Below are positions 2,516-53,261 of a stretch of DNA of 64,000 nt, one piece after another. The position numbers were made by a program, and so were the translations under genes. Below the pieces are notes generated by a model. It made no database searches, was not told the DNA's origin, and worked only from the letters and a program-made list of their open reading frames with translations. The DNA is taken from positions 4,588,001 through 4,652,000 of the forward strand of contig CM102285.1 in assembly GCA_046563655.1 (NCBI GenBank). The letters are read 5' to 3'. Position 1 is the first letter of the stretch, and each line of letters starts with the position of its first letter. This stretch comes from Yuukianura sp. NJ FZ-2021 (Eukaryota).

Positions 2516-2995
2516 GGTGGAAGAAATTTTTCAGGTCCGGTACAATTAGACTGAATGAAAAACTGGACTGAGTAACTTAAAGCTTCCGTTTATATGTTAA
2601 GGATGTTTACGGTGTACTACTCAAATCTCTATTTCATTTTCACCTTGAATCGGCGGCTGATTAAAATCCTAATCAAATTAACAAACAACGTATGTTGATT
2701 TGCTGGTTCTGGACTACATTTGACATCACATCCGGAAAGAACAATAGGAAAATTAGATCAACTGGTTTTAGATTAGATTAAAGCTACTTCCAGAGGTTTA
2801 AGGGGTTAAAGGTGTAATCCTAGCAAATAAAGTCCAAATTTCCGGTTTTTGCTCCTGTCCAAACTTCAATCCTTTGGCCTGATTTGACTTTTTAATTAAA
2901 ATAAAAATAATAAAAATTAATATGTATAAATATTTAATTTCTCTCCTGAACAGTCTTTTTTATTTCTTCTGAGACGTCATTCCTTGTGTTGTTGA

Positions 2996-4789
2996 TCAAT
3001 AAATCATTCCCGGGTGAAAGTCTGCTTTATAGAAATATACATTTGGATTCAACGCGGAGAAAGTTGGGGCATCAAAGCTTCCGTATGGATTTGGACTCTC
3101 TGGAACAAAAAGTACAAAGCATTTGGTATTTTTTGTTGTGCGTGAAGTGATTCTTTGCATGAAAAACTTGAAACACATTTACAAACATACCTATTCCTTT
3201 CATGTAGAATTTCATTGGGTCGACTTGGAAAAATGACGGAGAGTATTCGTCTTCTTGATTTTCTGCCAATAGTTTACCTCCGGCTAAAGTAGCTAACTGG
3301 CGGCCCTGTTTAAATTTTGAAATAAGTTTTCAAATTTTCAAATAAAATTCTAAAATCAAGATAAAGTTTCAAAATTCGTTTGTGAAGAATTGTTTTGTAC
3401 TGACCTTTGGCATAAATATGATTAGAAATGTAAAAAGACTCTGAGCTTGACATCCAAAAGCTACACATGCATCCAAATGTCTTTCCTACAGAATCACCCA
3501 AAAATTGACTTTGAATGATGACATCAATGTGTAACTTTGCACTTACGTGTAAGATACAAGCGGCTAATATCCAACAAACCCAGACCGGAATTGTTGCTAA
3601 AACTGCAAATCCGATGAATGTCGCTTCGCCATAATTCTCCTGGATTTTTCTAATTCGAATGGCCAGAAATCCAACAAACATAATAAGAAAAAGATTGTAT
3701 GAGATCATTGGCCACAGCATTGGGTTGAATCCAACGTCACATTCAGACCAGAGTGATTCAAATTCGGTGGACACGTTCACCTGTACAAAAAAAATGTAGA
3801 GTAACTAATAATCAGAACGGATTATTTAGATCTCTGTTTTAAGTTGTCGTATGAAACCCATACTGCTCCTGCAAAACGTTTTGAAGTTCAACTTTGCGTT
3901 TTAGTGGGGTAGACTTTTTTTTAAATCCTAAGCGTCGCGTTTTTTCTTCCTCTTCCATTACCTCCAAAATAGCGCAATAAAATGGCTTTACCTGACTGAT
4001 GCTGGGAGGAAATATTAGAGATGACTCAGTGCTAATTGCCACTTGGACGAGGACGGAGAAGAAAAGAAGTACAGCTTGATACGTCAGAGTTAAATTATTT
4101 CCAGAATCCAAACTGATCAAGAAGATGGCTTTCACCAACAAAACGGAGAAAATCATTGCATACGATACACTGATTCCAATGGTTCCGAGAAAGCAGTTCA
4201 CATATCCCGGACTGACTACAAATATAAGTGAGAATCCGGAGCATGATGCTAATCCTAGGAGAAGAAGCTGACCGAGGAACAGTGGATTTTGACCGCGTGA
4301 TTGGCACAGGACGTAAACCTCGAAGAAAGCTATTAGGCAGAGATTTAAAAGAACAAAAGATATGAGAGGGATTGCCCAAATTTCGCGTCGTACGTAGCCC
4401 CCAAACATGTAGCTGAAGTTAATAGCGTCTTCGTTAGGTGCATCGTCATTTGATGTATTTTTTCGTGAGCTCGAGTATATGTCTTCATTGGATAAACCTT
4501 CCTCGGTAAGTTCCTGAATGCGTGCGGTTGACGTTCCTATCACTCCGTAATTCGATTCATCGTCTTTGTTTGTCTTTCGCCGCCTTTCTCCTGCAGAATA
4601 CTTATCCACTTGAGTCTCAGGAGTCGCTGTGACATGCAATGTAGATGTCCGGTTCCTCAGAGCTTCCCGATGCACAGGAAGTAATTGAATTAAAGGAAAT
4701 GGGTTTTCGTTATGAAATCCAGCCATCTCCAGTCCGTGAGTGAGCGTGCATAGTATGTGAGTGAGAAACACTAAACTCGTACCAAGCAT
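2996..4789 (-). CDS. Class C (7tm_3, mGluR/BOSS-like) orphan GPCR with short ectodomain, copy 1
   Basis: Signal-like N-terminus and a TM series: WAIPLISFVLLNL..AFFEVYVL, LFLGQLLLLGL, SYAMIFSVLLVK, IRKIQENYGEATFIGF, FLIIFMPKGRQL. C-terminus HPGMIY*. Five coding exons. Confidence 0.88.
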
Positions 4790-7576
4790 CTGGAAAATAA
4801 AAATAATTAAACAGTATTATTAAATACTGTGTAGCACTTGATGTTACGTTTTTCCCTTTCGAAAAGGAAAAGCGTAGTGGTCTCGAGATGTCGAAAGCGT
4901 TCAAAATTGCAATAAGGAAATCAATGAATTGGGTATAGAGTTCTTTCTACGTGGCGAGTGACGTCTCAGTGACACACTCAAAGTGGATAGGAAAGTTTTG
5001 TCACGGTCTGATTCTACGGTGTGTCCAAAGATTGGTATCGTGGTTGTGTTGAATATATTTAACTAGTGTCTGAGCATGTGCTGATTTTTCTAACTTCAGC
5101 GTTTTGCGTAAATATGAAACCTTGCTTAGGTCGATATTGTAATTTATTCCACACTCCAGTGGGTCGACAAAAACAGCATGAGATTTCCCTTTGTTCTTTT
5201 CTCATATAAAATCAAGATTTCCAAGATAATGTGTTAAGAGTGACAAGAACATTCATTAAAACTGGATTAAATTTTGTGGTACTTGACCTAACCTTTCGAA
5301 AACAAACAAGTAGTAATCCTAGAGGAGAAATTTTTGAAATCCACCTTTCCCTTGGATCCCAACAAGAATTGTTTCTAGGAATCTTAAAATCTTACACGCT
5401 TCGACTCACAAAGCAAACAAGTTTAACATATTCTCATTACGGGAACATTTCCATTTTTAATTTAGCTGGTTATAATGATACTCCCGGTTAAGGAAAGTTT
5501 ACTTGCTCTATTCTTTTGATGTTAGAAAAGCATTCATTTTTACATCTTGTGTGCGTCCTAAAAATCGTGTTTGACCTATGCAGAACCCTTAAAAATTCTA
5601 AAGTAATTGCATTTTACTTTCGTATGAAATCAGTTCCAATAAATTACAAATTCGTCGTTGAAATTCTGTAATAACTAAATAAATTACTGATGGTTTGGGA
5701 GCTTAGAAGAATGAGAAAAACCTAAACTTGTATATGTTGTTATTTAAAAGAACGTTTGCCGGTTCTGACGGTATAACGAAAGAGAATGTCAATGTAATGT
5801 GGAAATACCTTTGTTGGTTTCAATTATTTCTCCTAACTGTTGATATCACATTTCTGTTACCGTTTTCCCAGACCATGCGCACTTGTAATTATGTTCTAGT
5901 TAAATGCTTTTAGTGCAGAGAATGAATGTGGCATTTGATCACCAAACCTGGACTTGAAACTGTAAAATTCTTGCAGTGCGGGCTCCGTTGTTTTTGAGTT
6001 GTGATGATGCCAAAGACTAAGATGCAACTGAAGAGGTTGAATTTAAGTGGAATCAAGGTAGAAGGAAAAGGAAGTTATTGTTTTAATTTACGAATTCGAC
6101 ACTCCGGTTGAGGGATTTAGAATAATGGGATTTGAGAAGGGAGTGTAGATGCGAGCCGTAGCGATATTTTGGCTCTGCCCATTTATTTTTGTACTTTTGG
6201 GTACAACTATAATGGAAGCACAGTAAAACACTTAAACCATGATCTTACCCCGTAAATCAAATCGTTGTTAGTAGTGCGTAGCGTTTTTTGTGGCGACCAA
6301 GTCATCTTTCACGCCCAAAACATCTTTGGACTCGTACTCAAGAATGAGTATTGCTTCGAGCCAGGCGTAGTAAATGTGCTTGTAAGATTATTCTCAAAAC
6401 AGCAAAACCTTTAAGTCCTTCCGGATTAAAACGTTATTCCTCTTAACTTTGCTGTCAGCGTGTCACATATGTGACAAAAATAATTATGAAAGTTTGAATT
6501 GCTACAAGTCCAGCAGTCGCTAGTTTGCGCCCTTAAGTTCTAAATTAAATTTTAACCGGGTTAAAATTTCAGTTAAAATGAAGTAGCTGAATTTGAAAGG
6601 CTTGGATGGTCAAAATTGGCATCGTATATGAGGGCGGAAACCATTTACAAAGCCGTTTTGTTTTGGATTTGGTCCATAAATTAATTATGTTGCGTCCACT
6701 ATTAGCAGTTCCCTACTAGTTCTGGTATTCAGTCCAACGTATCTGGGTTTTTTATTACTATGAAAAGTGTTTAAGTTAATGGCAAATCTTTTACTGTTCG
6801 GATTTTGTCAAAAAGAGTCAAATTTCTTGCATTTCGGAAGTCAACTGTAACAAAGTCGGTTTAATAAAAACAATTTTGTTACTGAACTTTTAGTAACTAA
6901 CTTATTATACTATAGTTTGATTTCCAAAGTCTTTTGATATTCAATGCAACCGGGCAATGCTAGTTGGAAAATCTAGCTTGTAAAAAGAAGCAGTGAAAAT
7001 CAATTTCCATTTCAAACTGGAGGAGTTAAAGCTTGCGATTTCCGTAAAATAGCAAAAAAGAAAAGATTTTCTGAAATTGAAAATTGCGTTAAACACGACA
7101 AACCATTACACGTCACTTCAAAATTGCTGTCGTTTTATCTCTAGAATTGCTTTAGGTTGTCGGGATTTTGCGCATTTAAAATACTTAATTGCCAGCGTGA
7201 TTAGTGGGCTAAGCATGTGCTCAACACGTATTATTGTCTAATTTTGTTAATATCGCTCGTGGACACTTAACTTGATCAGAATCTCTTCCACAATGCATTT
7301 GTGTCACATTTTCAGGAATTTTGCGTCAAAAATAGACTTAAGTGGCAGAATTTGAGATTGTTGTTTCGAATTTGAGGGTAAAATGCCACGCGTCGGTTCA
7401 TGTCTGATTACGACGAGTAGTTTTATCGATATCACTAAATTCAAAATTGCAAATATATATCAATTTTAGGTATTTAAATAGCCGTAATTTCTAAATAAGG
7501 CACCAGTTGCTTCCAAAATTGTTGTAAAATTGCTAAGCGCTCACGAAATAGTAAAGGAACAAAAAAAAGAGCTGCA

Positions 7577-9906
<2,330 letters not shown>

Positions 9907-10353
9907 ACGATTCACACAAAACCATCATCAGAAAGTACAAAAATGGAAGCGGACAATATTTTAACACTGAGATACATAATACAACGCAAAATATAAAATA
10001 AAGAATGCTGGGAATTCAAAATTGTAAATTCTTTTCCTGAACTTATTCTGCATTCAAGGTGACTTAAGCTGCGGCTTTAGTAAACAAAAAAGGAAAAAAT
10101 TTCTAAATTTTCCTAAACTTTCTGAAAATCTCACAACCATAAAAAATCATTCGGATATTTGGTGACTTCAAGTAAATCCCGGAAAGGCGGATGTGTGGTT
10201 CGCAAATTTCAAGGCTATACTTAAAATTTGGGAAAGCTCTTCCTTCACCCTCATACTTATGTCAAAAACGTATTATCCATTGAGTTAAAGACAGAATTTG
10301 CCAAAATTTTGTTCCGGCTCAGTTCATTGTTCGTCAATTCAAAAACAATACAA

Positions 10354-13300
10354 ATGGAGTTCCAGCTGAATCCCATGGCGGTATTGCCCATTTTGTTATT
10401 GCTTGTTACAACTCCATGTTTTACACCTCAGCAATCATCATTATTGTTTGGTAAAAAGAAATTCAAGTAAATCTCATTTTGGGGATTTTTAGTTTATTCA
10501 ATTTGCTGTAAATTAATTCAGCTCAAGCTTCTCCTAATTCGGAAAGCAAAAAAGAAAGAATCTTGCTTGGATACCTTCCAGCAGTTCGCGGAACAGTTCC
10601 TGGAAGACAAGGAATTGATATCTCTGGAGCCATTACATTAGCGATTGAGCGCATCAACAACCGGAGTGACCTCTTGCCAAACGTTGAGCTAGACCTTATT
10701 TGGGGAGACACTGAGGTAGACAGTAAATTAATAATTCGTAAAACACGGCCTTATGAAGACTGATTTTACAGGGCGATACACTCAAAGGAACTGAAATCCT
10801 TGTTAACATGGTAAGGAGTGTTGCCGTTGATGAAATATTTTCTTCAAACAGTAATAAACTGTGTATATAAAAACAACTGGTAAAGTTGCATAACGCGCAG
10901 GACAGCAAAGTCTTTTGTTACAGCAACAAAACTTTCGTATTTCAGCTTATTAATGATACGGCAGCATTCTTTGGCCCCGAATCTTCTTGTTCCGCGGAGG
11001 CTACAGTGGCTGGCGCTATGAATCGAGCTATGATCTCCTACGTAAGTTACAAATTACTAACTGAATCAGAACGGTTAAATTCGATTGTACAAAGCAAATT
11101 CATAATTGTAGAACCTAATGTACTCGGGCTGTACAAGCACTTATATTAAATTTTCATAAGCTGAATGAATGTCATCAATAATAACTCTCTTGTTTTGTTG
11201 TTTTTTGTTCGAAAAAGTTCTGTGCAGATGGGAGTCTTTCGGATAAAGAACGATACCCTACGTTTGTGAGAACAGCATCACCGGATACTCAAATTGTACA
11301 ATCAGTTTTATCACTGCTATCCCACTACAACTGGAAAATATTTCAAATTATTCTGCAGTCTTCTCATCGTAGTCGTTTTGCCACAGTAGCATCACGACTA
11401 TTTGAGTATGCTTTGAAAGAAGAAATGAAACCAAACCCAGTAAAGGAGTTCAACGACGAACACCATTCCGCTTACTGGTTTGAAATTGTTAATACAACAT
11501 GGACACAAACACGAAGTAAGATCCAAATTCATGCTACGTTTTTTTTAGATTAGTATTCAATTCATACGCGGTAAATAATATTATGTAGCAACTGCTTATT
11601 AGATATTATACGTTTGTATTAATTCGAAACTTATTTCTATGACTTCATCTAATGCGGATTCTATGATTTCAGTTTACGTTTTCATTGGCGAACATAGAAA
11701 TTTGGTGGAAATGATGAGTACAATGGGGAGTCTAAAAATGTTCGACAGTGGAGAATATTTGGTCATCTACATAGATTTGGAAACATACAATTCCCGTGTA
11801 GCGATGAAGTATCTCTGGCGTAAGATCTTCACATAGGTAGTTGATTACTAGATTAGTATTACTTACTGAATAATGATGGTGGGTAACAAACGGCATGTCT
11901 CATAACACAAAATATATCAACCGTTTGTAAATAAGTAGCGAAAGACGGACGCATGGACAATGCACCCAGCCCCCTTTTGAGCGTCGTAGTAACTTTGGGC
12001 AATCGCATTGCCCTATGGACAGTAGTAGTGCATTACAGCAAACCATTATGACATGGGTAAGAAAAACTTTTTAAGAAAAAACTTTTACTGAGGGTATTCT
12101 CTGCGGAAATGAAAGCGGTTAAACTTTTACCTGGAGGGAGTTGACAATAAATAGTGAACAGCCCTGTGTCATCCGATGCAAATGGATCCCTTAGATATTG
12201 AGCCGCTTCCGAGATAATTGGCGCCATCGAACGGACGTTCAGAGAGACAGATAGACAAGGGTGATACGTTAGCTTTCGCTACTTGTTAAGTCACAGTTTG
12301 ATACAAATTACCTTTTTCTGCACTTACTGGACACCAAAAATTGACCATCTAGATTCTTGTTACACAAAATATAAAATGTTATATTGTATTAAGTTTTGAT
12401 TTCATTCTACAGGTTTAAACGACTTTGGCTCAGTTTCCCACTGTCGCAATTTGACACACTACACTGCACAAATTGCACGAAGTCTATTGGTTGTAGCTCC
12501 ATCTCCAGTTGCTTACAGTTATCGCGAATTCTCAAACGCGGTGACTGCATTTAACTCGAAACCACCGTTTAATTTTATGAATTCACTTCTTGGACCAAAG
12601 TATCGAAAATTTGTAAGTGCAGGTATTAGGACGACACCACTTCTGATTCTAGCTACGCATAACGCTGAAAACTAAGTTGCTAAGTTCCTTTAGCTTAACT
12701 TCAAATAGAATGTTTAGAATAATATGTATGTTTTTCAGAGGGATCTCTGGGTGCATTAGGCACAAAGAGATGTTTAGAATAAAGTTTACCAGCAGTTCTA
12801 GACGGAATACTTTACAAAATAAGTTATGGGGGACAGTTTATGGCAATCCAAACCCAAAAAAGCAATAAGTCATGTAACAGTCAAACACTTTGTGCAGGTA
12901 TCCATTTATGCTGCCAATTTATATGACTCTGTCTTCATTTACGCAAAGGCTCTGGATGCTCTTTGGTTGAAATCAAATGGAACTGAAAATATTCAGGAAC
13001 TAGCGAGAGATGGACGCGCCATTTTCAAATCCATAATTAAAATGAAATCTTACGAAAGTAATTGGGCAGAAAAATATTCAACGTAAAAACACTTTTAAGG
13101 TATTGTACATTTATGTTTTCTTTTCAAGGCATTTCGGGAGCTGGAATTTCAATTGACGAGAATGGAGATTCTGGGGGAAACTACACCGTCATTGCATACA
13201 CAGAACAGCTCTTTGAATCCGGTCATTTTACTTGCGATTATGGAATGTTCCCGGTAGCCAACTTTCACCAGTCCGATGCAATAAGTTCCCTTCCGGTATG

Positions 13301-15368
13301 TTCTGCTCTTCTTTCAGACGAACTCTAGTGTAAACTCTTCAATTTGATACCTCGTGTCGAATGGACATGAACCTTAATCTAAACTTAACCTAACATATTT
13401 TTTTTTTACTTTTGTGAAATGTTAAGGAAATTCAGTTTTTTTCTGGAAAGAAAATTGAGTGGGACCTACCCCCAGCAGATTCTCCTAAATGTGGCTTCCA
13501 TTATGAACACTGTCAGACAGCGGGTACTATTTGGCGTGTCAGGATAATAGCAGCTTTTCTTGCCATCATTTTTCTACTGTTGTTGTCAACATGCCTATTT
13601 CTAAGGTACAAGGTATGTAGACAAAGAAGTAAAGTTCATGCTTACAATGTTTTGCCAAATTATTAACCTTCCCGATAACGACATTGCAACTTCATGCACA
13701 TACCAGGTGAAAATATAAATATTTTAAATATATTCCAGAGGATCCAAAAGATTCCGAGGCTCACTAGTGAGGAAATTCGAGAGTTCAAACATGGAAACAA
13801 AAGTGAATACAGTTCTGAGTTGGAACACTTCACATACAATCAACCTTATGACAACTCATTTGAAATTGAATCTCACGCGTTCTTAGTAGGTAAAGCTGAA
13901 AACACAAGAATAAACGATTTTTTTTATAAGCGACGCTACATTTACATAAATTTTTTTAAAGATCACGATGCCATTTTGGGCCAAGGGCAATTTGGAATTG
14001 TGTACAAAGGCACGATGAAAGTTGGCAACACGCTAGAACCTGTAGCTTTCAAAACTGTAAAGTGTGAGAAGGGCACGACTAACTTAAAAAGTCTTTTATC
14101 GGAACTGAAGTTGATGATTTATATTGGACAACATCCGAATATTCTTCGGTTGATGGGTGCGTACACTCGAAAATTAAATAGAGGAATTGCTTATGTCGGA
14201 CTTGAATTTTGTGAGCACGGAAGCTTAGAGCGTTTACTCCGCAACAACCAACACTTACATACGGCTGCAACTACGGGAAATTTGTAAGTATTGAATAAAT
14301 CAAAATAATGTTTGTTACACAACTAAATAAGATAAGTCCGTACAGAAAAACTGATATACACACTCACAAAGTTTTCACAAATTAGTACGCTTTCCACCAA
14401 CAATACTGTATAAGGTGAAGGAAATTGTACACCTGGTGTACCTAATGTACACATAGTGTGTACCTAGTGTATATAGTATAGTTACGTTAGGTTAGGTTGT
14501 GTCTAACTCAATCGTACCAAAATTTAGAGAAGAATTTGCCGAAGAAGTAAAAGAAGCACCTATTCTGGTAACTCCGCTTATGCAAAACCAGTGGTCTTCG
14601 CAAATCGCAAAAGGAATGGACTATCTTTCCGCCAAGAAGGTGAAAAGTTGAAATAAAAATTTTTAACAAATCGAAATGAATTGAACTAAGAAACTCACTA
14701 TAAAGCAACTCTAAGATGGGTTTCCTGTTTAAGATTAGTTACGTATGATTTGAAAAATTCAATTTTTGGTTCAACTAGATCGTTCATGCCGATTTGGCCA
14801 CTCGGAATGTACTAGTGACTTCTGACCTGTCAGTTCGTATTTCGGATTTTGGTTTGTCTCGGAGAATGGAAAACTATGAGAATTATTTGAAGACCGGAGA
14901 GGAACCGCTGCCTTGGCGCTGGATGGCTCCGGAGTCACTCGAGTTTCGTGTTTTCGCTACTGCATCAGACGTTTGGTCATTTGGTGTGGCGCTGTGGGAA
15001 ATTTACTCAATGGGTAGCATTCCATACGGTGCAAAGTCGTGGACGACAAATTTTGTTCGAGAGTTGGAAGCTGGTGAGCGTCTAAGTCGGCCTGTACATG
15101 CAACCGAAGAAATGTAATTTTATTTTATCAAAATTTACCGTAATTTCTAGACTATACACATGAAATTAACTTTTTGGTGTTTAAAAGTTTCTTATGTGTA
15201 TTTCTACAATGTTGTAGATACGAGCAAATGAAAAGGTGCTGGGCAGGTGATGCTTTACAGAGACCTACATTTAAGGATCTTGCAATATTTTTTCAAAACG
15301 GTGTTTACAGAGAAAACAACATTGTATACCTCGATGTTAGAACTTTGGTTCTCAGCAAAACCGTTTAA
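10354..15368 (+). CDS. Chimeric single-pass receptor: ANF-receptor/receptor-guanylyl-cyclase-type ectodomain + TM + tyrosine kinase (PVR/VEGFR-like), copy 1
   Basis: About 15 exons with compatible phases. Ectodomain: GYLPA..QGIDISGAITLAIERINNRSDLLPNVEL, FFGPE, YPTFVRTASPD, AANLYDSV, IDENGDSGGNYTV, PADSPKCGF. TM exon 13427-13612. Kinase: GQGQFG, VAFK, SELK, HADLATRN, DFGLSR, PWRWMAPE, SDVWSFG, CW...RPTF. Confidence 0.88.
11933..12284. mobile_element. Non-autonomous element (MITE or HINE/DINE-1-like) in a receptor intron
   Basis: 12-bp inverted repeats AAGTAGCGAAAG (11933-11944) / CTTTCGCTACTT (12273-12284) and a GACA/GATA microsatellite near the right end. Also present in copy 2. Confidence 0.6.
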
Positions 15369-15829
15369 CCTTTCATTATATTCATCTCTTCCACAACTAT
15401 TGTCTTTACAACTTTACAACGTTTAACAACCGCCAAAACGTGTAGCCGCCGCCGGCCTTCTTTGGTGGCTACGTATGGGTTGCAATATTTGTACAGTGGC
15501 CCATGAGAAATATCGCCACTCAACTGTACAAAATAATGATGGCAACAGTAAATGTTATGTAGCAAATGTTAGTTAGGTTTTTGTCACATCGGCTAGGTTG
15601 ATTCAATTATATTGACATGTTATGTGAGGATTGTTCACTAATCATTAGTTAATTTTACCACAAAGGTAACAGCAACATAACATCTTTTGATTTAACCCGT
15701 GGGTTAGGTTGGAAAACTCACGATTTTTAGTCCAACGCGCATCAAAGCAGGCATCCGAGAAAACCGCGTTTTAGTGAGACTTTATTGTTTTGTTTCGCAT
15801 GGCGCGACGAAGATTTTTGGGCCAAGACT

Positions 15830-17603
15830 AAAAGTCTGAAGTGCTGTCTGAAGTGCCTGTAACTTTGTCCAGAAACTCCAGAACTGACTGGAAACCACAA
15901 AAACAATTCTCCCACCTCCTTCTCACTCGATCCCACCACTGGGAAATGCTGGGAAGTCACTGGGGAAAAAACTACCCCTTTAGCTGTCTGAAGTTGCTGT
16001 CTGAAGTGGACCCACTATTCCGCTGATTCGTCAGAAATCGCAATCGCACTGGTTAAAATTTTCGCTAGTAGGAATGTGCGAAATACCAGGAAATGACAAA
16101 ACTGAGTTCCCAGCATCTTGTTCATCATTTCCCAACACTGGGAAATGGTGGGAAGTGTCTGGGGAAAAAACTACCTCTTTATTTTGGGGGTGGGAGGAAG
16201 TCTGAAGTGGGAATAACTTTGGCTAGAAAGGTGGGAAATGCTGGAAAACAATAAAACTGAGTTCCCAGCATCTAGCTCATTACTTCCCACTACTGGGAAA
16301 TGGTGGGAAGTGACTAGGAAAGAAACTACCTCTTTATTTTGGGGGTGGGAGGAAAACTCTGAAGTAGGAATAACTTTGGCTAGGAAGGTGGGAAATGCTG
16401 GGAAATGACAAAACTGAGTTCCCAGCATCTAGTTCATCAGTTCCCACTACTGGGAAATGGTGGGAAGTGACTAGGGGAGAAACTACCTCCTTATTGTGGG
16501 GGGTGGGAGGAAAACTCTGAAGTAGGAATAACTTTGGCTAGGAACGTGGGAAATGCTGGGAAATCACAAAACTGAGTTCCCAGCATCTAGCTCATTACTT
16601 CCCACTACTGGGAAATGGTGGGAAGTGACTAGGGGAGAAACTACCTCCTTATTGTGGGGGGTGGGAGGAAAACTCTGAAGTAGGAATAACTTTGGCTAGG
16701 AAGGTGGGAAATGCTGGGAAATGACAAAACTGAGTTCCCAGCATCTAGTTCATCAGTTCCCACTACTGGGAAATGGTGGGAAGTGACTAGGGGAGAAACT
16801 ACCTCCTTATTGTGGGGGGTGGGAGGAAAACTCTGAAGTAGGAATAACTTTGGCTAGGAACGTGGGAAATGCTGGAAAATGACAAAACTGAGTTCCCAGC
16901 ATCTAGTTCATTACTTCCTACTACTGGGAAATGGTGGGAAGTGACCAGGGAAGAAGCTACCTCTTTATTTTGGGGGTGGGAGGAAAACTCTGAAGTTGGA
17001 ATAACTTTGGCCAGAGAAGTGGGAAATGCTGGGAAATGACAAAAATGAGTTCCCAGCATCTGCTTCATTAGTTCCCACTACTGGGAAATGGTGGGAAGTG
17101 ACTAGGGGAGAAACTACCTCCTTATTGTGGGGGGTGGGGCAAAACTCTGAAGTTGGAATAACTTTGGCTAGAAAGGTGGGAAATGCTGGGAAATCACAAA
17201 AATAAGTTCCCAGCATCTAGCTCATTAGTTCCCACTATTGGGAAATGGTGGGAAGTCTCTTGGGAAAAAACTGCCTCTTTATTGGTAGGGTGAGGGGATA
17301 CTTTTTTACTGTCTGAAGTTGTAATAACTTTAGCCAGAGAAGTGTGAAATGCTGGGAAATGACAAAAATGAGTTCCCAGCATCTGCTTCATTAGTTCCCA
17401 CTACTGGGAAATGGTGGGAAGTGACTAGGGGAGAAACTACCTCTTCATTTTGGGGGTGGGAGGAAAACTCTGAAGTTGGAGTAACTCTGGCTAAGGAAGT
17501 GGGAAATGCTGGAAAACAATAAAACTGAGTTACCAGCATCTAGCTCATTACTTCCCACTACTGGGAAATGGTGGGAAGTGACTAGGAAAGAAACTACCTC
17601 TTC
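15830..17603. repeat. 158-bp tandem satellite, ~11 copies, G-tract rich
   Basis: The marker ctagga(a)g recurs at 16381, 16539, 16697 and 16855 (period 158). Recurrent ctgggaaatggtgggaagtg and ttcccagcatctag motifs. Monomers are degenerate at both ends. Confidence 0.95.
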
Positions 17604-17960: not shown

Positions 17961-20090
17961 CTTCATTGGAAGAGTCTTCGCGAAGACACTACATCACTGA
18001 GTGCGAAATAAACGATGGCGTTGAAGAAACCAGGAATTAAAAAATTATGTAATCCGACTACATTGTTTCCTTGTTAACTTACTTCCGCAGAACCTTGTTT
18101 CTTCATCACCACACAATCTTGTTAGTTCACCTTGCAGAACTTACTTTGCTCATTGCAGATAAACACATTAGGATATTAACACAAAACTACCATCCCTTTA
18201 GCTATCATTACCGTATTTTCTGGCAGATAACCTTTGGACTTTCTGTGAAATTTTAATTTGGGATGAGCGAATTTTTGGTCTGCAAAACCTCATCATCACA
18301 TAACCTCATTATTTTACTCGCGTAAAACCATATTTTTTGTTAAAAAACATCATCCTCCACATGCATGATCGGGGTTCACGCAGACACGTTCACTCTTTTT
18401 AGTAGTTAGTTGGAGCACTAACTGCAAAAAGAGTGCGTATTCTCAAGTCGAAAATTCAAATCACATAAAGATTCAAACGTGCCTACTGTTTACTGGATTA
18501 GTTTCAATTTGAGGTTTTAAAACTTCTCAAGCTCCACATTTTTATTTCCAATTTATCAAAAATTTTTGATCTAAACTATTACACAATTTGTTTCCACAAC
18601 ACCTCCACGCACTTTGGGATTAACATCAAAACGTTGCCACAAACATGTCATGTTTCGGTGGGCTCTATTTAAGTGTTAATACCAGACGTGTGAAAAGAAA
18701 GATAAATCTTTTTGGGGACTTCTTTGTCTTTAATAAGTTTTAAAGTCTTTAAAAATTTTGAAAAACTCTTTTTGCTATAAAAACTTTTTCCTCTCTTTTT
18801 TTAACGAAAATCAGGTAAAAACAGGAAAGAGTCAAAAAATGCAATTTTAGCAGAAATTTCCACGATTTTTTGTTAGTCTTCCAGAATTGGGCGAAAATAT
18901 TAATTTCAAAACGGTGGGGTGAAAATTTAGTCAAAATTTTATAACATATGTCTCATATTAACATCATCTTTGATATGCATTAGATATTCAGTGACGGTTC
19001 GTCCAGTGAATATCTAGTGGATAATATATTTCATCCGGTTTTATCCGGAAGAAATGGCTGGATAAAATGGATATAAGTAGATACTTCCACTTATTTTGAT
19101 GCAAGTGGAAGAAATACTTTATCCATCTAGCAAAAATGGTGTTTAGGAACAAAAGTTACGCTTAGTTTAACTATTTTTCCAATAACACATACAAATCTTT
19201 TATTGTATTTGGTTGATTCTAGGATTCTTACGTTTTTAGAGTTGCTTTTCTAGCCATTTTTAAGAACATTTTTAGAACTTATTTGAGCAATTCTTTAAGG
19301 ATTTTTAAGATTTTAAAATAAGGATTTTTGGAATTTTCTTTTCACAGGTCTGTTTATTACGAAATCTAAACAACAGAGCACGTTCAGCTACACAAATTAT
19401 ACTTGGACATTTTCAATGTAACGTTAGGTATTCGCTTCCAAAGACTTACGTACACCAGTCCATCTTAATTAATGTTCGTCTAAAAATGCTCCGGATGCTT
19501 AAACACTTGAATATGAAAGTTTACTTTATGCTCATGGAAAAATTGATGGGAGACATTTTTTGTCGAACCGCCTCTTCTTCATTTGAAGAAGCCCCTCTTA
19601 TCTCAGGTGAATTTTCAGTAATTCAATTACACAACAAAATTTGGATGTCAGTTCAGTTACTAAGAAACTAATTACCTCCAACAGTCGTTTATATGTTAAG
19701 GATGTTTACGGTGTACTACTCAAATCTCTATTTCATTTTCACCTTGAATCGGCGGCTGATTAAAATCCTAATCAAATTAGCAAACAACATAGGTTGATTT
19801 GCTGGTTCTGGACTACATTTGACATCACATCCGGAAAGAACAATAGGAAAATTAGATCAACTGGTTTTAGATTAGATTAAAGCTACTTCCAGAGGTTTAA
19901 GGGGTTAAAGGTGTAATCCTAGCAAATAAAGTCCAAATTTCCGGTTTTTGCTCCTGTCCAAACTTCAATCCTTTCGCCTGATTTGACTTTTTAATTAAAA
20001 TAATAAAAAAAAATATGTAAAAATATTTAATTTCTCTCCTGAACAGTCTTTTTTTTATTTTTCCTGGAACGTCATTCCTTGCGTTGTTGA

Positions 20091-21889
20091 TCAATAAATC
20101 ATTCCCGGGTGAAAGTCTGCTTTATAAAAATATACATTTGGATTCAATGCGGAGAAAGTTGGTGCATCAAAGCTTCCGTATGGATTTGGACTCTCTGGAA
20201 CAAAAAGTACAAAGCATTTGGTATTTTTTGTTGTGCGTGAAGTGATTCTTTGCATGAAAAACTTGAAACACATTTACAAACATACCTATTCCTTTCATGT
20301 AGAATTTCATTGGGTCGACTTGGAAAAATGACGGAGAGTATTCGTCTTCTTGATTTTCTGCCAATAGTTTACCTCCGGCTAAAGTAGCTAACTGGCGGCC
20401 CTGTTTAAATTTTGAAATAAGTTTTCAAATTTTCAAATAAAATTCTAAAATCAAGATAAAGTTTCAAAATTCGTTTGTGAAGAATTGTTTTGTACTGACC
20501 TTTGGCATAAATATGATTAGAAATGTAAAAAGACTTTGAGCTTGACATCCAAAAGCTACACATGCATCCAAATGCCTTTCCTAAAGAATCACCAAAAAAT
20601 TGACTTTGACTGATGACATCAACGTGTAACTTTGCACTTACGTGTAAGATACAAGCGGCTAATATCCAACAAACCCAGACCGGAATTGTAGCTAAAACTG
20701 CAAATCCGATGAATGTCGCTTCGCCATAATTCTCTTGGATTTTTCTAATTCGAATGGCCATAAATCCAACAAACACAATGAGAAAGAGGTTATATGAGAT
20801 CATTGGCAATAGCATTTGATTGAATCCAACGTCGCATTCAGACCAGAGTGATTCAAATTCGGTGGACACGTTCACCTGTACAAAAAAAAATATGTAGAAT
20901 AATTACTAATCAGCACAGATTATTTAGATTTTATTTTTTAAGTTGTCGTATGAAACACACATTGCTCCACCAGTAAGTTTTTATGTTGAACTTTGCGTTT
21001 TAGTGGGTAGACTTTTTTAAAATAAATTCCAGCTCAGCGTCGCCTTTTTTTCTTTCATTTACTCCAAAACAGAGCAATAAAATGGCTTTACCTGACTGAT
21101 GCTGGGAGGAAATATAAGAGATGATTCAGTGCTAATGGCCACTTGGACGAGGACGGAGAAGAAAAGAAGAACAGCTTGATACGTCATAGTTAAATTATTT
21201 CCAGAATCCAAACTGATTAAAAAGATGGCTTTCACCAACAAAACGGAAAAAATCATTGCATACGATACACTGATTCCAATGGTTCCGAGAAAGCAGTTCA
21301 CATATCCCGGACTCACTACAAATATAAGTGAGAATCCAGAACAGGATGCTAGTCCTAGAAGAAGAAACTGACCGAGGAACAGTGGATTTTGACCGCGTGA
21401 TTGGCACAGGACGTAAACCTCGAAGAAAGCTATTAGGCAGAGATTTAGAAGAACAAAAGATATTAGAGGAATTGCCCAAATTTCGCGTCGCACGTAACCC
21501 CCAAACATGTAGTTGAAGTTAATAGCGTCTTCGTTAGGTACAGCATCATTTGATGTATTTTTTCTTGAGCTCGAGTATATGTCTTCATTTGATAAACCTT
21601 CCTCGGTAAGTTCCTGAATGCGTGCGGTTGACGTTCCTATCACTCCATAATTCGATTCATCGTCTTCGTTTGTCTTTTCCCGCCTTTCCGCTGCAGAATA
21701 CTTATCCACTTGAGTCTCAGGAGTCGCTGTGACATGCAATGTAGATGTCCGGTTCCTCAGAGCTTCCCGATGCACAGGAAGTAATTGAATTAAAGGAAAT
21801 GGGTTTTCGTTATGAAATCCAGCCATCTCCAGTCCGTGAGTGAGCGTGCATAGTATGTGAGTGAGAAACACTAAACTCGTACCAAGCAT
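20091..21889 (-). CDS. Class C orphan GPCR with short ectodomain, copy 2
   Basis: Same exon structure as 2996-4789. Several amino-acid differences (e.g. FNPMLWP vs FNQMLLP) and no disabling lesion seen. Confidence 0.87.
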
Positions 21890-24687
21890 CTGGAAAATAA
21901 AAATAATTCAACAGTATATAATATGTATTAAATACTGTGTAAAACTTGGTATTACAGTTTTCCCTTTCGAAAAGGAAAAGCGTAGGGGTCTCGAGACGAC
22001 GAAAGCGTTCAGAATTGCAATAAGGAAATCAATGAATTGGGTATAGAGTTCTTTCTACGTGGCGAGTGACGTCTAAGTGACACACTCAAAGTGGATAGGA
22101 AAGTTTTGTCACGGTCTGATTCTACGTTGTGTCCAAAGATTGGTATCGTAGTTGTGTTGAATATATTTACTTGTATCTGAGCATGTGCTGATTTTTCTAA
22201 CTTCAACGTTTTGCGTAAATATGAAACCTTGCTTAGGTCGATATTGTAATTTATTCCACACTCCAGTGGGTCGACAAAAACAGCATGAGATTTCCCTTTG
22301 TTCTTTTCTCATATAAAATCAAGATTTCCAAGATAAAGTTTTAAGAGTGACAAGAACATTCATTAAAACTGGATTAAAGTTCGTGGTACTTGACCTAACC
22401 TTTCGAAAACAAACAAGTAGTAGTAACCCTAGAGGAGAAATTTTTGAAATCCACCTTTCCCTTGGATCCCAACAAGAATTGTTTCTAGGAATCTTAAAAT
22501 CTTACACGCTTCGACTCACAAAGCAAACAAGTTTAACATATTCTCATTACGGGAACATTTCCATTTTTGACTTTAACTGGTTATAATGATACTTCCTGTT
22601 AAGAAAAATTTACTTGCTCTATTCTTTTGATGTTAGAGAAGCATTCATTTTTACATCTTGTGTGCGTCCTAAAAATCGTGTTTGACCTATGCAGAACCAT
22701 TAAAAATTCTAAAGTAATTGCATTTTACTTTCGTATGAAATCAGTTGCAATAAATTACAAATTCGTCGTTGAAATTCTGTAATAACTAAATAAATTACTG
22801 ATGATTTGGGAGCTTAGAAGAATGAGAAAAACCTAAACTTGTATATGTTGTTATTTAAAAGAACGTTTGTCGGTTCTGACGGTATAACGAAAGAGAATGT
22901 CAATGTAATGTGGAAATACCTTTGTTGGTTTCAATTATTTCTCCTAACTGTTGATATCACATTTCTGTTACCGTTTTCCCAGACCATGCGCACTTGTAAT
23001 TATGTTCTAGTTAAATGCTTTTAGTGCAGAGAATGAATGTGGCATTTGATCACCAAACCTGGACTTGAAACTGTAAAATTCTTGCAGTGCGGGCTCCGTT
23101 GTTTTTGAGTTGTGATGATGCCAAAGACTAGGATGCAACTGAAGAGGTTGAATTTAAGTGGAATCAAGGTAGAAGGAAAAGGAAGTTATTGTTTTAATTT
23201 ACGAATTCGACACTCCGGTTGAGGGATTTAGAATAATGGGATTTGAGAAGGGAGTGTAGATGCGAGCCGTAGCGATATTTTGGCTCTGCCCATTTATTTT
23301 TGTACTTTTGGGTACAACTATAATGGAAGCACAGTAAAACACTTAAACCATGATCTTACCCCGTAAATCAAATCGTTGTTAGTAGTGCGTAGCGTTTTTT
23401 GTGGCGACCAAGTCATCTTTCACGCCCAAAACATCTTTGGACTCGTACTCAAGAATGAGTATTGCTTCGAGCCAGGCGTAGTAAATGTGCTTGTAAGATT
23501 ATTCTCAAAACAGCAAAACCTTTAAGTCCTTCCGGATTAAAACGTTATTCCTCTTAACTTTGCTGTCAGCGTGTCACATATGTGACAAAAATAATTATGA
23601 AAGTTTGAATTGCTACAAGTCCAGCAGTCGCTAGTTTGCGCCCTTAAGTTCTAAATTAAATTTTAACCGGGTTAAAATTTCAGTTAAAATGAAGTAGCTG
23701 AATTTGAAAGGCTTGGATGGTCAAAATTGGCATCGTATATGAGGGCGGAAACCATTTACAAAGCCGTTTTGTTTTGGATTTGGTCCATAAATTAATTATG
23801 TTGCGTCCACTATTAGCAGTTCCCTACTAGTTCTGGTATTCAGTCCAACGTATCTGGGTTTTTTATTACTATGAAAAGTGTTTAAGTTAATGGCAAATCT
23901 TTTACTGTTCGGATTTTGTCAAAAAGAGTCAAATTTCTTGCATTTCGGAAGTCAACTGTAACAAAGTCGGTTTAATAAAAACAATTTTGTTACTGAACTT
24001 TTAGTAACTAACTTATTATACTATAGTTTGATTTCCAAAGTCTTTTGATATTCAATGCAACCGGGCAATGCTAGTTGGAAAATCTAGCTTGTAAAAAGAA
24101 GCAGTGAAAATCAATTTCCATTTCAAACTGGAGGAGTTAAAGCTTGCGATTTCCGTAAAATAGCAAAAAAGAAAAGATTTTCTGAAATTGAAAATTGCGT
24201 TAAACACGACAAACCATTACACGTCACTTCAAAATTGCTGTCGTTTTATCTCTAGAATTGCTTTAGGTTGTCGGGATTTTGCGCATTTAAAATACTTAAT
24301 TGCCAGCGTGATTAGTGGGCTAAGCATGTGCTCAACACGTATTATTGTCTAATTTTGTTAATATCGCTCGTGGACACTTAACTTGATCAGAATCTCTTCC
24401 ACAATGCATTTGTGTCACATTTTCAGGAATTTTGCGTCAAAAATAGACTTAAGTGGCAGAATTTGAGATTGTTGTTTCGAATTTGAGGGTAAAATGCCAC
24501 GCGTCGGTTCATGTCTGATTACGACGAGTAGTTTTATCGATATCACTAAATTCAAAATTGCAAATATATATCAATTTTAGGTATTTAAATAGCCGTAATT
24601 TCTAAATAAGGCACCAGTTGCTTCCAAAATTGTTGTAAAATTGCTAAGCGCTCACGAAATAGTAAAGGAACAAAAAAAAGAGCTGCA

Positions 24688-27023
<2,336 letters not shown>

Positions 27024-29049
27024 ACGATTCACACAAAACCATCATCAGAAAGTACAAAAATGGAAGCGGACAATATTTTAACACTGAGATACATAATACA
27101 ACGCAAAATATAAAATAAAGAATGCTGGGAATTCAAAATTGTAAATTCTTTTCCTGAACTTATTCTGCATTCAAGGTGACTTAAGCTGCGGCTTTAGTAA
27201 ACAAAAAAGGAAAAAATTTCTAAATTTTCCTAAACTTTCTGAAAATCTCACAACCATAAAAAATCATTCGGATATTTGGTGACTTCAAGTAAATCCCGGA
27301 AAGGCGGATGTGTGGTTCGCAAATTTCAAGGCTATACTTAAAATTTGGGAAAGCTCTTCCTTCACCCTCATACTTATGTCAAAAACGTATTATCCATTGA
27401 GTTAAAGACAGAATTTGCCAAAATTTTGTTCCGGCTCAGTTCATTGTTCGTCAATTCAAAAACAATACAAATGGAGTTCCAGCTGAATCCCATGGCGGTA
27501 TTGCCCATTTTGTTATTGCTTGTTACAACTCCATGTTTTACAACTCAGCAATCATCATTATTGTCTGGTAAAAAGAAATTCAAGTAAATCTCATTTTGGG
27601 GATTTTTAGTTTATTCAATTTGCTGTAAATTAATTCAGCTCAAGCTTCTCCTAATTCGGAAAGCAAAAAAGAAAGAATCTTGCTTGGATACCTTCCAGCA
27701 GTTCGCGGAACAGTTCCTGGAAGACAAGGAATTGATATCTCTGGAGCCATTACATTAGCGATTGAGCGCATCAACAACCGGAGTGACCTCTTGCCAAACG
27801 TTGAGCTAGACCTTATTTGGGGAGATACTGAGGTAGACAGTAAATTAATAATTCGTAAAACACGGCCTTATGAAGACTGATTTTACAGGGCGATACACTC
27901 AAAGGAACTGAAATCCTTGTTAACATGGTAAGGAGTGTTGCCGTTGATGGAATATTTTCTTCAAACAGTAATAAACTGTGTATATAAAAACAACTGGTAA
28001 AGTTGCATAACGCGCAGGACAGCAAAGTCTTTTGTTGCAGCACCAAAACTTTTGTATTTCAGCTTATTAATGATACGGCAGCATTCTTTGGCCCCGAATC
28101 TTCTTGTTCCGCGGAGGCTACAGTGGCTGGCGCTGTGAATCGAGCTATGATCTCCTACGTAAGTTACAAACACTAACTGAATCAGAGCGGTTAAAATTTG
28201 ATTACACAACGCAAATTCATCATTGTAGGACCAAATGTACTCGGGCTGTACAGGCACTTATATTAAATTTTCATAAGCTAAATGAGTGTCATCAATAATA
28301 TCTCTCTTGTTTTTTGTTGTTTTTTGTTCGAAAAAGTTCTGTGCAGATGGGAGTCTTTCGGATAAAGAACGATACCCTACGTTTGTGAGAACAGCATCAC
28401 CGGATACTCAAATTGTACAATCAGTTTTATCACTGCTATCCCACTACAACTGGAAAATATTTCAAATTATTCTGCAGTCTTCTCATCGTAGTCGTTTTGC
28501 CACAGTAGCATCGCGACTATTTGAGTATGCTTTGAAAGAAGAAATGAAACCAAACCCAGTAATGGAGTTCAACGACGAACACCATTCCGCTTACTGGTTT
28601 GAAATTGTTAATACAACATGGACACAAACACGAAGTAAGATCCAAATTCATGCAACGTTTTTAGATTAAGTATTCAATTTATACGCGGTAAATAATATTA
28701 TGTAGTAACTGTTTATTAGAAAGTATACGCTTGTATTAATTCGAAACTTATTTCTATGACTTGATCTAATGCGGATTCTATGATTTCAGTTTACGTTTTC
28801 ATTGGCGAACATAGAAATTTGGTGGAAATGATGAGTACAATGGGGAGTCTAAAAATGTTCGACAGTGGAGAATATTTGGTCATCTACATAGATTTGGAAA
28901 CATACAGTTCCCGTGTAGCGATGAAGTATCTCTGGCGTAAGATCTTCACATAGGTAGTTGATTACTAGATTAGTATTACTTACTGAATAATGATGGTGGG
29001 TAACAAACGGCATGTCTCATAACACAAAATATATCAACCGTTTGTAAAT

Positions 29050-29402
29050 AAGTAGCGAAAGACGGACGCATGGACAATGCACCCAGCCCCCTTTTGAGCG
29101 TCGTAGTAACTTTGGGCAATCGCATTGCCCTATGGACAGTAGTAGTGCATTACAGCAAACCATTATGACATGGGTAAGAAAAACTTTTTAAGAAAAAAAC
29201 TTTTACTGAGGGTATTCTCTCCGGAAATGAAAGCGGTTAAACTTTTACCTGGAGCGAGTTGACAATAAATAGTGAACAGCCCTGTGTCATCCGATGCAAA
29301 TGAATCCCTTAGATATTGAGCCGCTTCCGAGATAATTGGCGCCATCGAACGGACGTTCAGAGAGACAGATAGACAAGGGTGATACTTTAGCTTTCGCTAC
29401 TT
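29050..29402. mobile_element. Copy-2 counterpart of the intronic non-autonomous element
   Basis: Same 12-bp inverted repeats and internal sequence as 11933-12284. Confidence 0.6.
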
Positions 29403-31549: not shown

Positions 31550-31845
31550 GTACGAGGTGGTACAGGTGTATACCTAGTGTGCACATAGTGTATACATAGG
31601 GTATACACAGTGTATACCTAGGGTATACACAGTGTACACCGAATGTATACATAGCGTATAACTAGTCTATACATAGTGTATACCAATTGGATATCGAGCG
31701 CATACATAGTGTATACCGAGTCTATACCGATTCTATACATAGTGTGGTGTATACCTAGTGTATGCATAGTCTATACATACCAAATACCTAGTGTACACAT
31801 AGTGAGTACATAGTGTGTAGTATAGTGTATACCTAGCTGGTACCT
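31550..31845. repeat. Intronic (TAGTGTATAC)n-like minisatellite
   Basis: Many degenerate tagtgtatac(a/c) units. The homologous copy-1 tract (~14425-14480) is far shorter. Confidence 0.8.
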
Positions 31846-35661: not shown

Positions 35662-43302
<7,641 letters not shown>

Positions 43303-52760: not shown

Positions 52761-53261
52761 TTGGCAAGACGCAGTTCTGTTCGTTTGGTAAGAGACGAGG
52801 ATTCTAGGTCAGTACAACAAAAACAAACGAGGTCAAGGCAAGGGCAAACACCAATCGCTTATATCCCTTCATTTTTAAACGGTAAGTCTGAGTTTGCAGT
52901 CGCCGTTTTTTTTAAATGAAATTCCCAAATAAATTCCTACTTTCCTGAACTATTTTATAATTTCGCAAACTGGTGGGTACAAGGATACAGTAACGGCACA
53001 ATTTTTTTTAACCTTGGAAATTTTTGGTTGGAAATTCATTACCGAAAAGTAAGATGAAAATCCTCCTTTCAAAATAAAATTTCTTTTACCTATTGTGAAA
53101 TAAAATGCTTTTGCGCCTTTTCAGTATCATTGAAATCGAAAAATAAAACCATTTTTCAACCTAAAATCCTAATTTAAAAATGTAGTTATGCCTTTGGATT
53201 TTTTAATTAAGTGTATTTGAATTTGTTGATTTGCAGAGTTAAACTGATGCGACAAACGAGA

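Follow-up and report, generated by a model that had tools for sequence, protein, structure and literature searches.

A candidate flytrap receptor tyrosine kinase of probable mixed ancestry in Yuukianura sp., with a Gyc76C-type ectodomain and a springtail PVR/VEGFR-like kinase

Receptor guanylyl cyclases (rGCs) and receptor tyrosine kinases (RTKs) are usually treated as separate solutions to single-pass signalling. The described family closest in layout to the receptor analyzed here is that of the Venus kinase receptors (VKRs), single-pass RTKs with a PF01094-type flytrap that occur from cnidarians to echinoderms and in many insects, and that were first described in Schistosoma mansoni and then in insects and other invertebrates (PMC2680970, PMC3703292). 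The VKR flytraps form a monophyletic group adjoining the GABA-B receptors and have amino-acid ligands such as L-arginine, and most VKRs carry the motif GY(V/I)WFLPxWL (PMC2680970, PMC3703292). Their kinase is nearest to the insulin receptor kinase, with the sequence HRD(L/V/I)xxRNxL and a juxtaposed YY in the activation loop (PMC3703292). Recombinant VKRs from honey bee and schistosome are catalytically active and autophosphorylate (PMC3703292, PMC2680970), and flytrap receptors function as dimers (PMC2680970). The VKRs are the documented precedent for an RTK driven by a flytrap dimer. In this work, we analyzed a stretch of 64,000 nucleotides from Yuukianura sp. NJ FZ-2021 (assembly GCA_046563655.1, contig CM102285.1, positions 4,588,001 to 4,652,000; hereafter the window, to which all coordinates refer). 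Judging from its sequence, the gene at 10354-15368 on the + strand probably encodes a single-pass receptor of mixed ancestry, with the outside of a Gyc76C-type rGC and, inside, a springtail PVR/VEGFR-like kinase.

At the level of Pfam domains, this receptor has the layout of the VKRs: an ANF_receptor-type flytrap, one transmembrane (TM) helix and a tyrosine kinase with active motifs, with no cyclase. The statement in the initial annotation that no named RTK family has this architecture is thus overstated. What stands of it is that the ectodomain and the kinase that were joined differ from those of the VKRs, and the receptor is best described as an independent fusion with different parents within the known flytrap-RTK kind. 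A search of the open-access literature, which included passages of PMC5290486, PMC3971589 and PMC8662651, turned up no RTK outside the VKRs described as having an rGC-type ectodomain, and no PVR-type kinase with one. With the Gyc76C-type rGCs the receptor shares the ectodomain motif series and the extracellular juxtamembrane sequence P.D.P.CGF..E.C before the TM helix, but it lacks their kinase-homology pseudokinase, HNOBA linker and cyclase; its output cannot be cGMP. With PVR/VEGFR-type RTKs it has in common the placement of the kinase in trees, the PDB matches, the small size of the kinase insert and the Y..(D/N)Y pattern of the activation loop, whereas Ig domains are missing (none on the 12 exon pieces scanned) and the protein is short, 884 amino acids with a tail of 24 residues.

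The gene lies in AT-rich DNA of animal type (GC 0.33-0.46) with short introns. Its 15 exons, all on the + strand, join into a single frame with a 2655-nt coding sequence, from the ATG at 10354 to the TAA stop at 15366-15368; all splice junctions are GT-AG and the phases are consistent throughout. The predicted protein consists, in this order, of a hydrophobic N-terminal signal, the ANF_receptor ectodomain with six N-x-S/T sites, one TM helix (the single strong hydropathy peak, residues ~501-525, with its maximum at residue 506), a juxtamembrane segment, the tyrosine kinase and the tail. The initial annotation had joined the ectodomain exons, the TM exon (13427-13612, ending in ...FLRYK) and the kinase exons from 13739 in one frame, and the 15-exon model confirms this. 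All the motifs that it quoted are found in the translation, both outside (RQGIDISGAITLAIERINNRSDLLPNV, PTFVRTASPDTQ, ARSLLVV, SIYAANLYDSV, IDENGDSGGN and PADSPKCGF) and inside (PYDNSFEI, SELKLMIYIGQHPNILRLMGA, VAFK, HADLATRN, DFG and YENY). As for its first kinase exon, the start at 13739 was right, but positions 13890-13961 within it are an intron (intron 11, 72 nt, GTAAAG...AAAG) and not coding sequence. This segment is open in frame here, but it measures 71 nt in a second copy of the gene described below, and 72 and 71 nt cannot both be coding; the relatives aligned have no 24-residue insert at this position. The locus is likely to be a single transcript unit.

Exon 1 (10354-10450, ending in phase 1 at a GTAAAA donor) carries the start codon and the signal peptide (MEFQLNPMAVLPILLLLVTTPCF...). 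Exons 2-4 (10522-10715, 10772-10810 and 10946-11041) encode the N-terminal lobe of the ectodomain; they match positions 4-36 and 40-93 of the Pfam ANF_receptor profile, weakly per exon, and are 54-58% identical by tblastn to P0130, one of the rGCs recovered in our searches. Exons 5-6 (11218-11515 and 11673-11819), which include PTFVRTASPDTQ, form the region that scores above the Pfam cut-off for ANF_receptor (34.2 bits vs 25.4 bits). The second lobe, with ARSLLVV, SIYAANLYDSV and IDENGDSGGN, is encoded by exons 7-9 (12413-12612, 12898-13057 and 13129-13295), which are 43-65% identical per exon to P0130 and P0200 by tblastn. Introns 6 and 7 are long, but the P0130 alignment is continuous across both, which rules out that either hides an exon. 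Exon 10 (13427-13612) encodes the extracellular juxtamembrane sequence PADSPKCGFHYEHC and the TM helix and ends in phase 0. Intron 10 (13613-13738, 126 nt, GTATGT...CCAG) has phase 0 on either side. Exon 11 (13739-13889) starts in phase 0 with RIQKIP... at residue 529 and encodes the cytoplasmic juxtamembrane segment, LTSEEIREFKHGN...YNQPYDNSFEI. The kinase N-lobe (GQGQFGIV, VAFK and the alphaC Glu in LLSELK), the short kinase insert and the start of the C-lobe are encoded by exons 12-13 (13962-14283 and 14528-14639); the catalytic loop HADLATRN, DFG, the activation loop with ENYENY, WMAPE, RPTF, the tail and the stop codon by exons 14-15 (14779-15113 and 15218-15368). In a Pfam scan of 12 open reading frame (ORF) pieces covering the exons, ANF_receptor was found on four ectodomain pieces in profile order, the one above the gathering score and three at 12.7-18 bits, and PK_Tyr_Ser-Thr on four kinase pieces, with 60.5 bits for the region of exons 12-13, 129.8 bits for exons 14-15 and two weak matches (13 and 15 bits).

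The ectodomain is of Gyc76C-type rGC origin, as the initial annotation had proposed; this is borne out both by identity and by a tree built from the ectodomain separately. A HMMER search with ectodomain exon 5 recovered 193 proteins at E up to 0.001, the best 150 of which were examined (93 of these are under 300 amino acids). Fourteen of the longer ones were scanned: ten have ANF_receptor, a kinase-homology domain, HNOBA and Guanylate_cyc, three break off inside the kinase-like domain and one is an ectodomain alone. The named relatives are Gyc76C-like proteins (Toxorhynchites, Diaphorina, Haliotis, Limulus), Gyc32E-like and speract-receptor-like proteins and nematode cyclases, and the nearest full-length relatives of the exon 5-6 region are receptor cyclases. 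Over residues 33-480, the receptor is 51% identical (E 6e-150) to P0130, itself a full rGC with ANF_receptor, kinase-homology domain, HNOBA and Guanylate_cyc, and 41% identical to the Gyc76C-like protein of Toxorhynchites. In the ectodomain tree, with 33 rows (the window sequence plus 32 relatives in which 300 residues or more could be aligned, after removal of eleven near-identical members of clusters), the receptor is sister to P0130 (SH-aLRT 99) within an 11-row clade that includes insect Gyc76C (99).

Two side observations were made on exon 5. Searched alone (11218-11514), it has GABA-B receptor subunit 2 as its best solved-structure match (E 7e-6), and no natriuretic peptide receptor appears among the matches listed. 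Its protein matches also include very long predicted proteins (P0121-P0123, P0126-P0129 and others) of up to 3927 amino acids, with 4-10 separate matches to this one flytrap exon, two of them named "CASR protein, partial" from Polypterus senegalus; these are probably merged tandem class C receptor genes.

The likeness to rGCs ends close to the membrane. Pairwise alignments of residues 440-600 show that it switches between residues ~495 and ~536, a 40-residue bracket that holds intron 10. On the outer side, the rGC likeness (F.C.Y.M.PV.NF ... I.W ... P.D.P.CGF..E.C) extends to about residue 495, at CGFHYEHC in exon 10; on the inner side, an RTK juxtamembrane motif, LT.EEI.EFK.GN...Y..PYD..FEI, followed by the Gly loop, begins at about residue 536 in exon 11 and is common to five springtail RTK-like proteins (P0027, P0013, P0023, P0030 and P0020). 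The TM helix aligns with both parents and is uninformative, being a hydrophobic stretch. The phase-0 intron 10, which the initial annotation had named as the point of exon shuffling and which the bracket does contain, is the likely seam between the two ancestries; we infer a break within it, which is compatible with the alignments.

The kinase has other relatives than the ectodomain. A search with the C-lobe exon matched 513 proteins, of which the best 120 were examined, the best of all coming from Orchesella cincta, O. dallaii, Allacma fusca and unnamed records; the species of these best matches, taken alone, suggest that the source animal is probably a springtail. When longer proteins were searched with a word-indexed method, only the C-lobe exon matched, exon 5 and the N-lobe exon giving no scoring match. 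Residues 576-884 are 40-46% identical to the RTK-like proteins of Orchesella and Allacma (E down to 3e-83). Eleven rGC kinase-homology domains also gave matches, with 23-31% identity (E 1.6e-16 to 4.7e-05); P0130 is the closest relative of the ectodomain, yet its kinase-homology domain is only 23% identical to the receptor's kinase. The best PDB matches of the N-lobe piece include EphB1, PDGFR-alpha, Tie-2, FLT3, VEGFR and KIT. Those of the C-lobe piece include PDGFR, KIT, VEGFR2, FLT3 and FGFR at 95-101 bits, a two-stretch EGFR entry being at the top of the list, and the insulin receptor is not among the best 60 PDB matches of either piece.

Kinase trees were built in two versions, a quick one with 60 rows and a careful one with 44 rows, from which 16 long, unnamed or redundant rows had been left out (P0002, P0004, P0005, P0006, P0007, P0017, P0039, P0052, P0062, P0068, P0072, P0085, P0093, P0100, P0113 and P0119); eight rGC kinase-homology domains were included. 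In both trees, the two window copies belong to a clade whose 13 rows are springtail and unnamed sequences (ultrafast bootstrap 100, SH-aLRT 98) and which is sister to the VEGFR1-like kinases of a damselfly and a crab (99/99), the whole forming a 15-row clade, and the rGC kinase-homology domains are separated by a 100/100 branch. The receptor's kinase groups with the VEGFR1-like, RET and FGFR-like rows and apart from those of Ror, MuSK and Trk, a division that corresponds to the FPVR vs insulin-receptor-like subgroups (PMC8662651). Holding the window pair with the Gyc76C-type kinase-homology domains, where the ectodomain tree would put it had there been no shuffling, costs 187 lnL units and is rejected by the approximately unbiased (AU) test (p 3e-5). 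On these comparisons, the separation of the kinase from the Gyc76C-type kinase-homology domains can be regarded as secure, and the chimeric ancestry of the two halves as well supported.

The elements needed for catalysis are kept: the GQGQFGIV Gly loop, the Lys of VAFK, the alphaC Glu of LLSELK, the Asp and Asn of HADLATRN, DFG and APE, in agreement with the initial annotation, whose list of VAxK Lys, alphaC Glu, catalytic Asp, DFG and activation-loop tyrosines was recovered in full in the alignment and motif check. The activation loop is of the Y..(D/N)Y type and the kinase insert is short. The Arg of HRD is replaced by Ala (HAD). HAD is also found in P0013, P0015 and P0020, the nearest sister group, and in the damselfly VEGFR1-like kinase, and HGD in the crab VEGFR1-like kinase and most other members of the 13-row clade; since its nearest relatives and the VEGFR1-like kinases have one or the other, this is a trait of the clade and not decay of this gene. 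In the aligned rGC rows, this loop is HGNLKSSN or HGDLKSPN; the catalytic Asp is missing from the two domains of Gyc76C type, and the Gly loop from all. The springtail RTK-like proteins also have the juxtamembrane motif, the kinase insert and EPLPWRWMA.ESL in common with the receptor, and none of these occurs in the three aligned rGC domains. From its motifs, the kinase is likely to be catalytically competent.

No cyclase match was found in any part of the 64-kb window. Six receptor guanylyl cyclases used as tblastn queries hit the ectodomain and kinase exons only, and a profile hidden Markov model (HMM) of the linker and cyclase domains, derived from seven cyclases and searched against the six-frame ORFs of at least 15 residues, gave a best E of 4.7, vs 1e-52 to 8e-79 for three control cyclases. 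The stop codon comes 24 residues past the kinase, with neither HNOBA nor Guanylate_cyc before it, and cyclase exons further downstream are ruled out over the window by both searches. The absence of a cyclase, already stated in the initial annotation, therefore holds across the window with working controls.

A second tandem copy of the receptor gene, which is not in the initial annotation, was found by tblastn at 27471-32695 on the + strand. All 15 exons and splice sites correspond one-to-one between the copies, and the junction between the halves is the same. Because this junction is present in two copies of unequal divergence, a one-off misassembly is unlikely to have produced it. In copy 2, exon 12 is shortened by an in-frame deletion of 3 nt, and the TM exon has a 5-nt insertion (~30639-30646) just past CGFHYE that shifts the frame and leads to stop codons before the TM helix; the five cytoplasmic exons downstream of the frameshift are still one open frame. 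Both copies are part of a tandem segmental duplication (2587-15819 and 19686-33259, spacing ~17.1 kb), in which identity is 94% between 2587-4888 and 19686-21996, 97.5% over the 8.5 kb of 6000-14473 and 23111-31616, and 88% between 14439-15550 and 31785-32885, at the 3' end of the receptor gene. This uneven divergence suggests gene conversion or a composite history. The introns near the cytoplasmic exons differ by 10-22% between the copies; intron 10 (126 nt in copy 1 vs 119 nt in copy 2) diverges by 15%, like its neighbours. Intron 12 was seen to differ by an indel of ~215 nt, measuring 459 nt in copy 2 (31410-31868) vs 244 nt in copy 1 (14284-14527).

The differences between the two copies also allow selection to be assessed. 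The ectodomain has 8 synonymous (Sd) and 12 non-synonymous (Nd) differences (dN/dS 0.43), residues 497-884 have Sd 32.5 and Nd 28.5 (dN/dS 0.23), and exons 11-15 alone have Sd 28.5 and Nd 25.5 (dN/dS about 0.23). For exons 11-15, omega = 1 is rejected (p 1e-6), and so is omega = 0.5 (p 0.011), the minimum expected were one copy neutral. Because both values are rejected at a dN/dS of ~0.23, purifying selection must have acted on the kinase half in either lineage during most of the time since they separated. The copy 2 frameshift is either recent or an assembly error.

Several results weigh against a single, maintained receptor of this kind. (i) No orthologue of the same architecture was found: none of the best 120 of 513 kinase relatives has PF01094 or a high-scoring pair (HSP) with the ectodomain, none of the best 150 of 193 ectodomain relatives has a kinase more than 31% identical, and a metagenome scan with the N-lobe exon gave two loci, with only a 28% match and a 14-residue piece. 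Twelve of the 150 ectodomain relatives matched the cytoplasmic part at all, every one of them cyclase-type, and the best exon-5 match in the protein libraries is 45% identical. The 93 fragments among the 150 have an unreadable architecture; because fragments are so many and the window's own genome is apparently outside the protein libraries, the lack of an orthologue is weak evidence. (ii) Given the frame-breaking insertion in copy 2, at least one copy is broken, misassembled or able to make a secreted ectodomain only. (iii) The selection signal of the ectodomain is weak, as the 20 differences at a dN/dS of 0.43 give little power. (iv) In the kinase tree, the window pair sits on a long stem (0.93), which makes its exact place within the tyrosine kinases less secure than the bootstrap suggests, and an AU test with the pair beside all eight rGC domains is not rejected (delta lnL 8.3, p 0.068), a placement that, in an unrooted tree, only needs the pair to branch from the long stem that connects the cyclase domains to the tyrosine kinases. 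The grouping expected in the initial annotation, with PVR/VEGFR-like RTKs and not with rGC domains, is thus upheld by the tree (99/99) and by the rejection of a Gyc76C-type grouping, but not against this basal placement. (v) Intron 10 contains an ATG in frame with exon 11 and upstream of it, at which, as far as the sequence goes, a separate kinase-only product could start.

The last point leads to the alternative that survives best, namely that the locus holds two adjacent transcription units, one for a truncated decoy (ectodomain, TM helix and a 17-residue tail from intron 10) and one for a kinase alone, started at the intron-10 ATG. The frame past the donor at 13612 is indeed open for 17 codons before a stop (ORF 13418-13666), ORF 13679-14287 has an in-frame Met upstream of exon 11, and a kinase made alone would fit copy 2, where the frame breaks before the TM helix, yet the kinase exons are open and constrained. 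However, the two parts are only 126 nt apart, with consensus GTATGT...CCAG ends and matching phase 0 between them, and a second promoter would need to sit inside the upstream gene. Moreover, what comes after the seam is a juxtamembrane motif found next to a TM helix, on its C-terminal side, in five of the five relatives aligned, and intron 10 diverges between the copies as the neighbouring introns do. We consider two units to be unlikely.

About as hard to sustain, and in our view quite unlikely, is that the gene is a young non-functional chimera, unexpressed or decaying, with no consequence for signalling. The missing orthologue and the frameshift in copy 2 would fit such a gene, as would the 97.5% identity of the 5' 8.5 kb of the two copies, by which their duplication or conversion is recent. 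But copy 1 is intact across its 15 exons, and the cytoplasmic dN/dS of 0.23 is too low for either copy to have been neutral throughout the time of divergence (p 0.011). Furthermore, identity to the nearest rGC has fallen to 51% in the ectodomain and the kinase stem has a length of 0.93, yet neither a stop nor a lost catalytic residue is present; this deep divergence of both halves points to an old, maintained fusion.

That the receptor is simply a member of the VKR family, and so already known, seems very improbable. The common Pfam-level layout and the missing cyclase would agree with it, as would the best PDB match of exon 5, GABA-B2, which belongs to the group nearest to the VKR flytraps (PMC2680970). 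Against it stand several details: the GY(V/I)WFLPxWL motif is absent; the kinase has HADLATRNVL and ENYENY, with no YY anywhere, vs the HRD and YY of the VKRs; the flytrap nests in the Gyc76C-type cyclases (SH-aLRT 99), in a tree that contains no VKR rows; and the kinase lies with the VEGFR1-like, RET and FGFR-like rows and not with Ror, MuSK and Trk, in trees without VKR or insulin receptor rows. Since it is set apart by these published features of the VKRs, we read this receptor as an apparently independent, lineage-restricted fusion and not as a descendant of a VKR ancestor. Finally, it is hardly credible that, with no shuffling, an rGC was deprived of its cyclase while its own kinase-homology domain recovered the catalytic residues: a single BLASTP HSP does link the model to P0130 from residue 35 to 854, and the stem placement beside all rGC domains is not rejected (p 0.068), but within that HSP the kinase part is 23% identical vs 51% for the ectodomain, a clade with the Gyc76C-type domains is rejected (delta lnL 187, p 3e-5), and the juxtamembrane motif, the kinase insert and EPLPWRWMA.ESL recur in springtail RTK-like proteins but in none of the three aligned rGC domains.

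The springtail clade to which the kinase of the mixed receptor belongs deserves attention of its own. Its RTK-like members (P0013, P0015, P0020, P0023-P0025, P0027, P0028, P0030, P0034 and P0038), from Orchesella cincta, O. dallaii, Allacma fusca and unnamed records, share the juxtamembrane motif and the HAD/HGD loop with the window receptor, but their ectodomains are unlike its own, as none of the nine scanned by Pfam has ANF_receptor. P0030 and P0023 have an Ig ectodomain and P0027 (Orchesella dallaii) a C-type lysozyme, and no recognisable Pfam ectodomain is present in P0013, P0020, P0021, P0024, P0032 and P0034; the unmatched stretches of P0013, P0020, P0021, P0024 and P0034 span 500-860 residues. 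If the gene predictions are right, this kinase cassette would have acquired many different ectodomains in springtails, and its joining to that of a cyclase receptor as well would be no surprise in mechanism, and of interest as a pattern.

Two other genes are part of the duplicated unit, one for a class C GPCR, on the - strand, and one for an alpha-amylase. Fragments of the former (Pfam 7tm_3, E 1e-9 to 1e-12) lie upstream of each receptor copy, at 3313-4816 (-) and 20408-21907 (-), and no ANF_receptor exons were seen for them with the receptor-ectodomain queries. The alpha-amylase gene, of animal type, is directly upstream of each copy, at 8028-9850 (+) and ~25144-26960 (+), with Pfam Alpha-amylase on ORF 8028-8498. 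Just downstream of copy 1, a tandem array of a 157-bp unit (16069-17602, 9.7 copies, 88% match) is open in several frames on both strands. A Pfam scan of other genes, which covered 39 of the 102 window ORFs of at least 85 amino acids as single ORFs, identified an RNA polymerase Rpb11-type subunit (33667-34017, +), a DPPIV_N domain (41211-41737, +), an Atg3-like protein (Autophagy_act_C; 44879-45406, -), linker histone H1 (53211-53927, +) and an RDD-family protein (62770-63582, -).

As to how the mixed receptor may have arisen, its outside, and probably its TM helix as well, would derive from a duplicate of a Gyc76C-type rGC, and its inside from a springtail-specific expansion of PVR/VEGFR-like RTKs, with loss of the parental kinase-homology domain, dimerisation linker and cyclase. 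In Drosophila, the Gyc76C-type receptors are receptors for peptide hormones, with NPLP1 peptides among their ligands. Ion transport peptide has been reported as a Gyc76C ligand in Drosophila (PMC12611267, PMC13267572). By analogy, the flytrap ectodomain would dimerise and bind a peptide ligand as rGC ectodomains do; the change in the dimer would set the two kinase domains in a productive arrangement, and these would phosphorylate tyrosines in trans, the candidate sites being Y756 and Y759 in the activation loop, Y552, Y561 and Y565 in the juxtamembrane segment, and Y865 and Y872 in the tail. The output would be phosphotyrosine docking in place of cGMP. We infer the ligand class, the dimer mechanism and the kinase activity from sequence and from the behaviour of related receptors.

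Altogether, it is quite possible, although we propose it only tentatively, that in this gene the output of a Gyc76C-type peptide-hormone receptor was rewired, independently of the VKRs, to phosphotyrosine instead of cGMP and that selection has maintained the change. It would be one product of a springtail-specific burst in which one PVR-like cassette, made up of the TM-proximal motif and the kinase, was placed behind unrelated ectodomains, namely ANF_receptor, Ig, C-type lysozyme and several of no known family. If so, it would be a second independent flytrap-kinase fusion, and the rGC ectodomain dimer would be a portable input module, whose rotation or closure signal is legible not just to a cyclase but to a kinase too. 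The receptor would also offer a naturally occurring chimera with which to study signal transmission through the membrane by rGC ectodomains, with phosphotyrosine as a far easier read-out than cGMP, and it could help in pairing Gyc76C-type receptors with their ligands. The springtail kinase clade, in turn, looks like a live example of the domain shuffling of RTKs, which is mostly inferred from ancient events (PMC8662651). For the animal itself, the paralogous ectodomains could mean that one hormone drives two second-messenger systems in the same organism.

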